DNA from: an uncultured archaeon
GTDB taxonomy: Archaea; Asgardarchaeota; Lokiarchaeia; Sigyniarchaeales; SOKP01
Assembly: GCA_964486045.1 (NCBI GenBank)
Contig: CAZALK010000001.1
Location: 160,001 to 224,000, forward strand
DNA: 64,000 bases
Direction of reading: 5' to 3'
Each line of letters opens with the position of its first letter. The stretch's first letter is position 1. Position numbers and translations under genes: made by a program. Of this stretch, positions 11,574-61,890 are shown piece by piece. The notes under the pieces were generated by a model. The model searched no databases. It was not told where the DNA came from and saw only the letters and a program-made list of their open reading frames with translations.

Positions 11574-11591
11574 TATATATAAAGAAAAAAA
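11574..11591 (-). promoter_or_regulatory. T-run/TATA promoter element (peptide ORF)
   Basis: TTTTTTTCTTTATATATA on minus strand. Confidence 0.65.
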
Positions 11592-11635
11592 TGGAAAAAA
11601 TTGGATTTTAAAAATCTAGATGTAAATTTATAGAT

Positions 11636-12229
11636 ATGATTGTTGATCACGTCGATAAAACAATTAGTATAAAAATTGTATATTTTGGACCGGCTCTTTC
11701 TGGTAAGACAACTTCAATAAAAACTTTATTTTCTCTTTTTGGTAAGGAGGAGGAAATATGTAGTATTGAAAGTACAGTAAATAGAACTTTATTCTTTGAT
11801 TATGGTATTGTTTCCTTTCAAAATCAGGATTGGAAGATCAAAATTCATATTTATACTACAACTGGCCAGGATTTCTATATAATAACTAGGTTAATTACAT
11901 TACATGCGGTAGATGGAATCATCTTTGTATTAGACTCTCAAAAAGAAGTTTACGACCGAAATTTGGCATCTTGGAAAGAACTTCTTTCATATTTTAGTGA
12001 ATCTATTGAAACCATTCCAACTATTATAGCATTTAACAAACAAGATTTGCCTATAAAATTTAATCCTGAAACGTTCTTGCATAACATTAATTTTGGGAAA
12101 TATAAAAACATTGATACAATATATACCAGTGCAAAACTAGGAGAAGGTATTTTGGACTGTTTTGAAAATATTTTGCAATTAATTTTAAAAAAATACTATA
12201 AAAACAAAATAGTTAATGTATTAAATTAA
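11636..12229 (+). CDS. MglA-like small GTPase
   Basis: KIVYFGPALSGKTT, RTLFFD, TTGQ, DGIIFVLDS, NKQD. Confidence 0.88.
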   Translation: MIVDHVDKTISIKIVYFGPALSGKTTSIKTLFSLFGKEEEICSIESTVNRTLFFDYGIVSFQNQDWKIKIHIYTTTGQDFYIITRLITLHAVDGIIFVLDSQKEVYDRNLASWKELLSYFSESIETIPTIIAFNKQDLPIKFNPETFLHNINFGKYKNIDTIYTSAKLGEGILDCFENILQLILKKYYKNKIVNVLN

Positions 12230-12265
12230 AAAAGAAAAAGAGATATCTTATTTTTTCTTCCTTGT

Positions 12266-59916: not shown

Positions 59917-59937
59917 TCTCTACCCAATGTAATTTTA

Positions 59938-61845
59938 ATGTTATCAAAACAAGTTTACTCTGAAAAAACAGTTGCCTTAGAGGATTTATTTCCCAATTTT
60001 ACCCATGAATTCTTAGAACCGTTTAAGGAGATAGTAGGGGATAAGATTAAACTTGATCTTCATCTCGATTTTCAGATCAAAGGCAGAAAACATGCCCATA
60101 AAATAAATCCTATTTTGCGATTAGCAAGACCGGAAGATGCAGAAAAAATTATTGAGATTTACAAAGAATTGTATGATGGCACATATCCTTACAAGGAGAT
60201 GGAGGATGTTCATGAAGTTCGAAAAATGATTGAAGATCCGAAAGTCCAATGGATAATTTATCAAGATCCTTCTGAAAATATCGCCGGATGTATTACCTTT
60301 GTTTTAGATTTTGAAAATAAACGAGGATATATCAGAGGCTTCATGCTGCGCAAAAAATATCAAGGTCATATTGATATAACTAAGGCAATGATAAGTTCGA
60401 TGCTTGGCATGCTCCATAAATATAAAAACGTAATTTATGTGTGGTATGTAGAAAATAGAACTGCTCACGCGAAATCTCAGTATTCTATGTATGTGTGCGG
60501 TATTTCTCCTATCGGATTCTATCCAAACAAGGATATCTTTTGTGGAGAAGTGGAATCGGACATCATGCAAATACTCTATGATGAAAAAGCATTAACATCT
60601 TTGCGTAGTAGGGAGATCCCTCAGTTAATACCTCAGGTTGAGCCTTGTTTTCAATTTTCGTGTGAAAGATATGGTTTAGAGTCACTTGTTATCAAGGATT
60701 CAAAGATGTCTTTGGATAGGAAGCTGGTTAAGGCTCTTAAGAAATCAATTTATGGAGATGTTTCGAAGGATTCATTTGGATACGAAACCTTTACTTTTAG
60801 ATTCCACGGTTCTGATTCTTTCTTCCAATTTTTATATACCCCTCAAGTGAAGAACTTTGAAAAAGTAAAATATAAAGTTGAGAGCCGGGAAGAACTACAT
60901 GTTTTTGCTAAAGAGTTTTTAAAATGCAAAAAAGAGTTAAGTGTAAGATATTGTGAAGTATTTGTCTCAGCTTACAATCGAGATCATCAACAAATTTTCT
61001 GGGATGTAGGATTTAAGCCTCGGGGATATATACCAAGCTGGGAATATTCCAACACAGAATCCATGTTTAAAGATTCAATATTGTTTAGTATATTCGACGG
61101 CAAGATTAGTGGTGACATCCAATTAATAGACCAAGGCTATAAATTAATAGAAATGTTAGGGATGGCAACAATCTCAAGTGCCGGTGAGACTATACCTCAA
61201 CGTAAAAAGAATGTTACGAAAGTCGTGAGTAGTGTTCTAAGCTCAAAAAAGGTTATGAAAAACTCCTTGCGAACTTCTATGGCAATGTATCTTGTTTTGC
61301 TAGCAATTAGTCTTTTAGTAGCAATAATTTTTGGCGATGTGGGGTTTAACTTAACAAAACACACCATCAGTGATCTTGGTAATTCACTTTTTACCCCAGC
61401 GCCCTTCTTATTTGATACTGCTTGCGGGTTGGCAGGAGCGGTGACGGTTCCCAATAGTTATTATATCTATAATATTGTAAAAAAAGAAAACTCAATAAAG
61501 GGATTTATTACACGAATAGGGTTACTATCTGGAATAATCGGTGGGGTAGGATATATTTGTGTAGGTGTTTTCAGTTTAGAACGATCAGGTCCGAATGGGA
61601 TCATTCATGGCATAAGTGCAATTATCGCTTTTACAGGGTTTGTCTTTTCTATATTATTTTTCAGTATTCCCGCTCTTCTACAAAAAAATATTGCCTATAA
61701 AATATTTGGTATTAGCGGAATTATAACTCCATCATTACTACTTCTACTCAACGGAATACTTGCTACACCTCTTCTAGAATGGTTGTTGTTATTCTCAATT
61801 CTTTTTCATATTGTTCCTCTAAATTACCGCTCTGTCTCTACTTGA
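59938..61845 (+). CDS. tandem GNAT-fold protein fused to a DUF998-like membrane domain
   Basis: LRLARPEDA, KYQG, GFKPRGYIP; HTISDLG, GVF, HG..A..F in a 5-TM tail. Confidence 0.7.
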   Translation: MLSKQVYSEKTVALEDLFPNFTHEFLEPFKEIVGDKIKLDLHLDFQIKGRKHAHKINPILRLARPEDAEKIIEIYKELYDGTYPYKEMEDVHEVRKMIEDPKVQWIIYQDPSENIAGCITFVLDFENKRGYIRGFMLRKKYQGHIDITKAMISSMLGMLHKYKNVIYVWYVENRTAHAKSQYSMYVCGISPIGFYPNKDIFCGEVESDIMQILYDEKALTSLRSREIPQLIPQVEPCFQFSCERYGLESLVIKDSKMSLDRKLVKALKKSIYGDVSKDSFGYETFTFRFHGSDSFFQFLYTPQVKNFEKVKYKVESREELHVFAKEFLKCKKELSVRYCEVFVSAYNRDHQQIFWDVGFKPRGYIPSWEYSNTESMFKDSILFSIFDGKISGDIQLIDQGYKLIEMLGMATISSAGETIPQRKKNVTKVVSSVLSSKKVMKNSLRTSMAMYLVLLAISLLVAIIFGDVGFNLTKHTISDLGNSLFTPAPFLFDTACGLAGAVTVPNSYYIYNIVKKENSIKGFITRIGLLSGIIGGVGYICVGVFSLERSGPNGIIHGISAIIAFTGFVFSILFFSIPALLQKNIAYKIFGISGIITPSLLLLLNGILATPLLEWLLLFSILFHIVPLNYRSVST

Positions 61846-61874
61846 ATTCTAATATTATTTCCTTTTCTTTTCAA

Positions 61875-61890
61875 TTTTTTTCTTTATATA
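61875..61890 (+). promoter_or_regulatory. T-run/TATA promoter element
   Basis: TTTTTTTCTTTATATA. Confidence 0.65.

Follow-up and report, generated by a model that had tools for sequence, protein, structure and literature searches.

The window examined here (64,000 nucleotides, C1:160001-224000 of a Lokiarchaeal assembly of 5.18 Mb and 31% GC) contains a gene island of about 45-51.5 kb, located at about 15-63 kb, in which a short T-run joined directly to a TATA box recurs upstream of the genes, and in which a divergent homologue of the initiation factor TFB is encoded. The island further encodes a second RadA (RadA2), FEN1, Hel308, a Hef-like helicase, a RadB-like protein, an NYN nuclease, a small GTPase, surface-type proteins, and a 1263-aa protein that resembles HerA/VirB4 ATPases and has degenerate Walker motifs. 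It is syntenic in the 8 same-genus genomes examined in detail and partial in 2 more, with flanking genes that differ between genomes, and the T-run element marks a conserved accessory island of Lokiarchaeia. The housekeeping copies of RadA, FEN1 and the helicases lie elsewhere in the genome and lack the element, and so do unrelated passengers within the window, namely a histidine kinase, a radical SAM enzyme, a VapBC pair and RibD. On phylogenetic grounds, some Asgards have been reported to possess a second RadA clade (PMC12722695).

All 24 copies listed in a first-pass annotation of the window were recovered in place and on the same strand: the core TTTTTVTTTAWAD has 19 exact matches in the window, whereas five copies have one further base, C or T, ahead of the TATA box, and the copy at 23555 is a TTTTTATA variant rather than the core form. 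In 100 dinucleotide shuffles of the window, the core was found only 1.29 times on average and 4 times at maximum. Across the genome the strict word occurs 291 times, or ~1.4 per 25 kb, with 15 and 5 occurrences in the two 25-kb bins that cover most of the window, and relaxed matches within the 51.5-kb island number 26 versus 4.1 expected (p about 5e-13). Similarly, 15 of the 33 lead genes of the island (45%) have the element, versus 66/3675 (1.8%) elsewhere in the genome. A general replacement of the TFB-recognition element (BRE), as first suggested, was not borne out, as the element is local to this one island and its satellites; additionally, a role as general promoter of the genome was rejected on position-specific counts over 2028 genes, which contain a TATA peak at 28-33 nt and no T-run consensus. 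The satellites are smaller element clusters on contigs C33, C8, C16, C15 and C14, several of them with paralogues of island genes, including an ERCC4 nuclease on C33 and HerA-type ATPases on C16 and C14. The densest one (L202; G000 C33, 15.9 kb) has 12 motif matches and holds the ERCC4 nuclease together with LRR, WD40 and TPR genes and a weak DUF4131 match, and a part of it is duplicated on C8. No Rfam match to a structured RNA was found in the window.

In these promoters, T5-C directly precedes an ordinary TATA box and sits in the slot of the purine-rich BRE, the last base before TATA being mostly C. Strong Sulfolobus BREs have A at -3 and a purine at -6 (PMC5817253), whereas the window copies have T at both positions. 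The proposed replacement of the BRE therefore holds as far as the occupied position goes, and it is from this position that a functional replacement appears plausible. The three purine-rich promoters that had been set against the element as those of metabolic genes are poorer controls than supposed, two of the three being non-metabolic: they precede a histidine kinase (27939), a B12 radical-SAM enzyme (29969) and a zinc-ribbon open reading frame (ORF; 50405-50551, plus strand, 49 aa with CxxC, the target of the control promoter at 50315). The conserved TBP1 promoter and the promoter of the divergent TFB serve better as purine-rich controls.

The arrangement of the copies is that of a promoter element oriented to the downstream gene and heading transcription units. 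The bimodal distance from TATA start to start codon reported at first stands for most copies, with 13 at 29-36 nt and seven at 50-59 nt, while three lie at 96-111 nt (15573, 25023 and 37782) and the one at 59879 has no clear gene. The split into leaderless and Shine-Dalgarno (SD) classes is supported among orthologues, since an SD-like word is found in 33/57 promoters of the 50-70 nt class versus 9/71 of the <=36-nt class, and the 3′ end of the 16S rRNA carries the matching anti-SD. The three back-to-back pairs (25536/25559, 26412/26447 and 59879/59902) were also confirmed. At 74 related loci, the element occurs at 3.3 per kb in divergent gaps versus 0.29 per kb in convergent ones, it is found 141 times in sense versus 10 times in antisense in tandem gaps, and its distance to the downstream start is spiked whereas that from the upstream stop is diffuse. 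Its near-absence from convergent gaps shows the element to be a promoter and not a terminator, as had been claimed.

Comparison of orthologues leads in the same direction. The element heads lead genes, and operon-internal genes are without it; none of the 21 same-genus RadA2 orthologues for which upstream DNA is available has lost it from the promoter, though the surrounding sequence has diverged. The promoter at 37700-37716 retains its 29-nt spacing in 24/27 motif-bearing orthologues, and that of another island gene retains 32 nt in 10 of 12. The TATA box is of the TTTA[A/T]A type, and the 29-32 nt to the ATG in orthologues fit leaderless transcripts from the presumed start sites. In four further genera, 71/190 island lead genes have the element versus 2/72 flanking ones, and an unsupervised motif search recovers it separately in each of the four. 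As for expression, the only RNA run found, from the cultured Promethearchaeum syntrophicum MK-D1, assembles to 4.33 Mb of flat-depth contigs, even over the whole genome, and is therefore probably dominated by DNA and uninformative; a published table of reads per kilobase per million is nearly flat in those of its rows that were accessible, and is uninformative on the island.

The candidate reader of the element is the divergent TFB encoded in the island. This protein of 412 aa has both cyclin repeats and the helix-turn-helix (HTH), and aligns to the TFBs of the same genome over 260 columns (HHalign probability 97.6%, E 3e-12). Its predicted structure is confident over residues about 100-310, and the top Foldseek matches of the model are all TFIIB/TFB, among them the Pyrococcus TFB-BRE complex (1d3u_B; root-mean-square deviation 3.3 A, 206 columns). 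Two conserved CxxC pairs form the N-terminal zinc ribbon. The B-reader/B-linker region is of similar length, modelled at low confidence, with the canonical motif replaced and invariant T67, G70, E74 and R75 of its own. The HTH of the second cyclin repeat is the reader of the BRE (PMC4581349, PMC6101591), and it is here that the divergent TFB departs from the canonical ones: whereas the recognition helix is [VI]TE[VA]T[LIV]R in 8/8 canonical TFBs of the genome, orthologues of family f1 have I[RKQ]MST[IV], then mostly Q, a sequence conserved within the family, and the window protein has IKMSTIQ in place of VTEVTLR. A complex of TBP1 with the core of the divergent TFB, predicted with no DNA in the model, scored 0.00, which is evidence neither way. 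Another candidate, the 193-aa protein (21785-22366), was considered as a TFB core and is not supported (HHalign probability below 1%), although, no structure having been predicted, it may still bear a remote resemblance.

The promoter of the divergent tfb itself is canonical in sequence, and none of 64 orthologues has the T-run there. A quasi-palindrome (38044-38062, plus strand), centred about 35 bp 5′ of its TATA box, is found in many orthologues (loci L103-L167) and is a candidate operator. A conserved block just 3′ of the TATA box is seen too, and both could be sites of a trigger regulator. The gene and RadA2 are on one contig in 16 relatives. Strong homologues of the divergent TFB were detected in 30/40 sampled genomes of the family, and it was not found above the canonical-TFB score in 157 sampled genomes of other Asgard families. 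Around 74 homologues of the gene, motif density is 37 per 100 kb versus 7 for the reversed control, and among related genomes, which are non-independent kin with fragmented assemblies, the motif excess is 2.95 per Mb in 25 with the divergent tfb versus 0.59 in nine with neither tfb nor RadA2. A second copy, 74% identical, lies in a satellite cluster (L204:9720-17274, G000 C16); it is followed by a copy of a C-terminal fragment, and its neighbours are paralogues of island genes and a HerA-type ATPase whose Walker A motif is intact.

Both cultured Lokiarchaea, MK-D1 and Ca. Lokiarchaeum ossiferum B35, carry the island, and in MK-D1 a TFB homologue lies inside it. The MK-D1 island spans about 1.728-1.783 Mb, with the tfb gene at 1,748,527-1,749,681; that of B35 spans about 5.614-5.642 Mb, and the B35 homologue is at 4,424,943. 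In these two organisms of family f2, the helix is [IV][TS]ASTVY, and an unsupervised search recovered an element of about TTT[CT]G.T that abuts the TATA box and whose nearly constant spacing is in line with leaderless starts. Other helices again are present in the lineages of G038, G049 and G051. A motif trained on MK-D1 marks 8/13 island units of B35 versus 1/51 flanks, and one trained on B35 marks 13/32 island units of MK-D1 versus 4/31 flanks; the motif of the window, by contrast, fails to mark the MK-D1 island (5/32 versus 7/31 flanks). The island borders in these genomes were set by gene homology after the upstream sequences had been seen. Helix and element thus change together between families, and this co-variation, being a single contrast of two lineages with borders drawn after viewing the sequences, supports reading of the element by this TFB without proving it.

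Based on these findings, we propose, with a probability of roughly 0.7, that the element serves a co-regulated accessory island as its core promoter and would be read by the divergent TFB of the island, which would amount to an alternative-TFB regulon resembling those of sigma factors. First, the housekeeping TFBs would bind the island promoters poorly, so that the island would be silent by default. A signal acting at the palindrome 5′ of the divergent tfb could then let the normal machinery transcribe that gene, and its product would join TBP on the TATA box, read the T-rich element via its new helix, and bring RNA polymerase simultaneously to about 20 promoters of the island. The island would therefore likely switch on as one unit, and its output, a second recombination toolkit together with membrane and surface proteins, would most likely put the cell into a state of DNA repair or DNA exchange. 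The divergent tfb is itself without the element, and positive autoregulation is therefore not predicted. DNA damage is a candidate trigger on the analogy of Sulfolobus, and the membrane and surface genes hint at cell contact. A bolder version, in which an orthogonal, co-evolved pair of helix and element with family-specific codes switches on a dedicated programme of contact between cells, uptake or exchange of DNA, and homologous recombination via RadA2, is possible though doubtful.

Several observations weigh against this proposal. The GRS and GKxP motifs, which stand at the start of the helix regions of both cyclin repeats in canonical TFBs, and the B-reader are altered in the divergent TFB, and therefore it may not work as a stand-alone TFB. 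The genome offers other candidates, namely its eight canonical TFBs, a further divergent TFB and the second of its two TBPs; one TBP-domain protein is encoded as well. Three fragmented genomes (88-94% complete) have RadA2 and the motif with no divergent tfb detected. In B35 the best TFB homologue is 1.2 Mb from the main island, adjoining the second FEN1. The co-variation of helix and element comprises two lineage-level states, hence one contrast, and a motif trained on fragments of two other f2 metagenome-assembled genomes (G048, G052) is unrelated, the variant not being recovered. A genome-wide count of the f2 variant allowing one mismatch gave no separation from the control. The other divergent TFB-like gene (L208:12589-13614; G000 C1:632589-633614) has a third helix sequence, lies a few kb from the 16S gene and is outside the family of the island TFB.

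A different origin of the island would be compatible with the same promoter mechanism: it could be a domesticated or still mobile conjugative-type element that brought its own TFB, and not a stress or mating programme of the host. Its patchy presence, variable flanks and satellites fit such an origin, as do eight active-site-bearing or related HerA/VirB4-like copies in the genome, with the motif at 5/27 homologues. However, there is no tyrosine integrase (no PF00589 match near C1:171-224 kb), no tRNA in the window and no GC shift from the genome, direct att repeats not having been searched; the Walker motifs of the island ATPase are degenerate; and the TFB tree, with its long branches, splits the f1 genus from the f2 members as under vertical descent. 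We consider this origin unlikely, though to be taken seriously. The eight HerA/VirB4-like ATPase genes are at G000 C1:261.7, 505.0 and 705.0 kb and on C12, C14, C16, C28 and C41; some are near-identical with upstream DNA in common, which suggests a mobile or recently duplicated family.

The element could also be an island-specific promoter with another reader, such as a sequence-specific activator, the 193-aa protein, the TFB at C1:632589 or a combination with TBP2, the island TFB being a co-activator like Sulfolobus TFB3. In Sulfolobus, a comparable gene set is indeed controlled by Orc1-2 on ANTTTC plus TFB3 (PMC6061795, PMC5817253), the altered core motifs of the island TFB would suit such a role, and a helix motif is conserved at the C terminus of the 193-aa protein. 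However, the Lokiarchaeal element abuts the TATA box, where the HTH of TFB must sit, so that an activator bound there would compete with TFB, whereas the Sulfolobus motif sits at -44 to -39, 5′ of an intact BRE. Moreover, the island TFB retains a full and strongly conserved HTH, and the 193-aa protein, whose own gene is under the element, gave no TFB match in HHalign. Another reader, one of the main rivals of the proposal, is therefore unlikely.

It is improbable that the T-run is an anti-BRE or a DNA-shape element, that is, a stiff T-tract excluding histones, which keeps promoters weak or open with no base-by-base reader. The T at -3 and -6, opposite to the bases of strong Sulfolobus BREs (PMC5817253), and the commonness of T-tracts in a genome of 31% GC would be in line with it, but the element has an exact phase, mostly C before TATA, and strand specificity; the second family swaps in a G-containing word at an equally fixed position, whereas any sequence could serve as a merely bad BRE. 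Oligo-T terminators lying beside AT-rich words by chance are highly improbable: T-tracts are sites of archaeal termination and many copies follow a gene on the same strand, but the density in divergent over convergent gaps and the distance fixed to downstream starts, not upstream stops, speak against them.

The promoter copies and genes of the window are collected in Table 1.

Table 1. Element copies, promoters and associated genes in the window. Distances run from the TATA start to the start codon unless stated otherwise.
Feature	Position	Strand	Remarks
T-run and TATA copy	11576..11591	-	Outside the conserved island; then 17-aa hydrophobic ORF with SD at +57
Promoter of 15679-16317	15573..15586	+	100 nt to first ATG
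NYN-domain nuclease	17532..19046	-	Conserved left-end island gene, operon-internal, no motif
Conserved 182-aa gene, then small GTPase	19168..20405	-	182-aa product roadblock-like by inspection only
Promoter of 182-aa gene	20421..20435	-	29 nt to an ATG
Promoter of split MFS transporter gene	21759..21773	-	32 nt
Promoter of conserved 193-aa gene 21785-22366	22418..22432	-	59 nt; 55-62 in orthologues
Second FEN1/XPG-family nuclease	22437..23531	-	34% to housekeeping copy
Variant promoter of second FEN1	23556..23570	-	30 nt
Element copy	25023..25037	-	96 nt 5′ of GNAT gene
Back-to-back pair	25536-25549; 25559-25573	-; +	104-aa and 122-aa conserved genes
Back-to-back pair	26412-26426; 26447-26461	-; +	32 nt; 54 nt
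Second RadA (RadA2)	33399..34622	-	Walker A/B intact, C-terminal helix-hairpin-helix; accessory in genus
RadA2 promoter	34665..34679	-	
Promoter of zinc-finger gene 35437-35817	35839..35853	-	29 nt; 29-32 in 16 orthologues
Operon: M50B-like membrane protein, small membrane protein, RadB-like P-loop protein	35861..37678	-	
Promoter of operon 35861..37678	37700..37716	-	29 nt
Second element copy	37782..37796	-	82 nt 5′ of the 37700..37716 copy
Canonical purine-rich BRE and TATA of divergent TFB	38081-38096 in region 38044..38096	+	
Divergent TFB, candidate reader	38175..39413	+	Zn ribbon, two cyclin repeats, rewritten HTH, about 100-aa C-terminal extension
Promoter of large two-anchor alpha-toroid surface-type protein ending at 43307	40651..40665	+	55 nt
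Promoter of operon 43365-46659	43327..43341	+	31 nt; operon includes Hef-like helicase 44071-46137, nuclease tail absent
Promoter of small conserved gene 46673-46924	46928..46942	-	32 nt
Promoter before decayed paralogue (47032-47118, -) of small gene 46673-46924	47125..47141	-	
Second Hel308-type helicase and promoter	47482..50068	-	Promoter 50049-50068, 34 nt
Promoter of five-gene membrane operon	52003..52017	+	35 nt
Five-gene operon	52045..59848	+	Membrane helix-hairpin-helix protein, two membrane proteins, 1263-aa HerA/VirB4-like protein, 119-aa protein
Back-to-back pair	59879-59893; 59902-59916	-; +	Without clear gene; 29 nt to GNAT/DUF998 gene
Promoter of gene ending at 63029	61875..61890	+	52 nt to frame open from about 61935

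Some of these features have details of their own. The 17-aa hydrophobic ORF (about 11473-11526, minus strand) has a strong SD and could encode a small membrane peptide. The MFS transporter gene (20443-21746, minus strand) consists of two overlapping frames behind an island-type promoter, and was not seen in the islands of relatives, in which the small gene 46673-46924 has two or three intact tandem copies. The perfect minus-strand copy at 59879-59893 faces the 3′ end of the membrane operon in antisense, and may give an antisense RNA. The gene at 61935-63029 (plus strand) has an SD-like word before its frame and a homologue that aligns from 61950; the codon where it should begin is ATA, so that its start is either mutated or non-standard. 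A remnant (51371-51580, minus strand) in the long gap that precedes the membrane operon matches the C-terminal region of a protein of 822 aa from a related locus and is probably a histidine-kinase fragment. At the left edge of the island (14321-17377) lie a CoiA-like nuclease-domain gene and an RNase_H_2 exonuclease, both rare in the islands of relatives. PADLOC gave no defence-system match, and the leads from an atlas search with the membrane helix-hairpin-helix protein were all below 0.8. No ups or ced family was above the cut-off; what was found is the HerA/VirB4-like resemblance and a weak CedD match (E 1e-4) for a satellite ATPase. The genome has a selenocysteine tRNA, and two small contigs (G000 C40 and C45) with 58% GC in the 31% GC assembly are probably contamination.

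In the literature on Lokiarchaeal promoters, BREs and TFB paralogues that was covered, which includes few subscription papers, no description of the element or the factor was found, and we regard the system as a real variant of TFB-paralogue regulation that is new in that literature. Unlike the island TFB, the TFB paralogues of haloarchaea have a near-canonical HTH, related BREs and targets spread genome-wide. The Lokiarchaeal genome resembles the multiple TBP/TFB networks of haloarchaea (reviewed in PMC7289017) in having several TFB paralogues with some promoter specificity. The division-phase regulon of Sulfolobus acidocaldarius TFB2 has BREs that 'appeared similar' to those of TFB1 with a different spacing, and tfb2 is its own target (bioRxiv 10.64898/2026.09.06.749720). 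Like TFB2, the island factor is a full-length TFB paralogue with a presumed dedicated gene programme; unlike TFB2, its element and helix are both rewritten, its presumed targets are clustered with it, and its own promoter is canonical. The DNA-damage regulon of Sulfolobales comprises Orc1-2, the ANTTTC element, TFB3, and the ups and ced genes (PMC6061795, PMC5817253, PMC6101591), and it likewise links genes for recombination, and possibly for DNA transfer, to a TFB paralogue and to a pyrimidine-rich motif with TTTC at its end. However, ANTTTC is bound by Orc1-2 at -44 to -39, 5′ of a retained BRE, and TFB3 is truncated, without B-finger and HTH, whereas the Lokiarchaeal motif fills the BRE slot and the island TFB keeps its HTH; therefore, the Lokiarchaeal system is not the TFB3/Orc1-2 system. 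Identity of the element with ANTTTC was rejected as well, the position being wrong and only 2/164 orthologous sites having ANTTTC between -16 and -7 relative to the TATA start. In bacteria, SigX/ComX are alternative sigma factors for competence. As proposed, the island system resembles them, by analogy and not by membership, in a swapped initiation factor, an own upstream promoter element, a DNA-handling programme and an own gene under housekeeping-type control, and it differs from sigma factors in protein family and in machinery, with TBP, TFB and the archaeal polymerase. The analogy of sigma and TFB has been drawn before (PMC4581349).

Almost nothing has been published on Asgard promoters and gene regulation, and the specialised archaeal TFBs in the literature covered either are without a DNA-reading helix (TFB3) or use similar BREs (TFB2). 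If the pair of TFB and promoter is truly orthogonal, archaea would have no clearer counterpart to an alternative sigma factor, and the pair would bear on the origin of TFIIB paralogues with their own promoter classes. Since the island, with a variant promoter, is present in the two cultured Lokiarchaea, there are named targets for experimental work, and because the regulon brings membrane machinery together with a second set of RadA, FEN1, Hel308 and Hef-like helicase, the timing and mode of recombination and DNA exchange in Asgards become testable. The bolder version, if true, would mean that archaeal relatives of eukaryotes, both cultured species among them, can be induced to enter a parasexual state.

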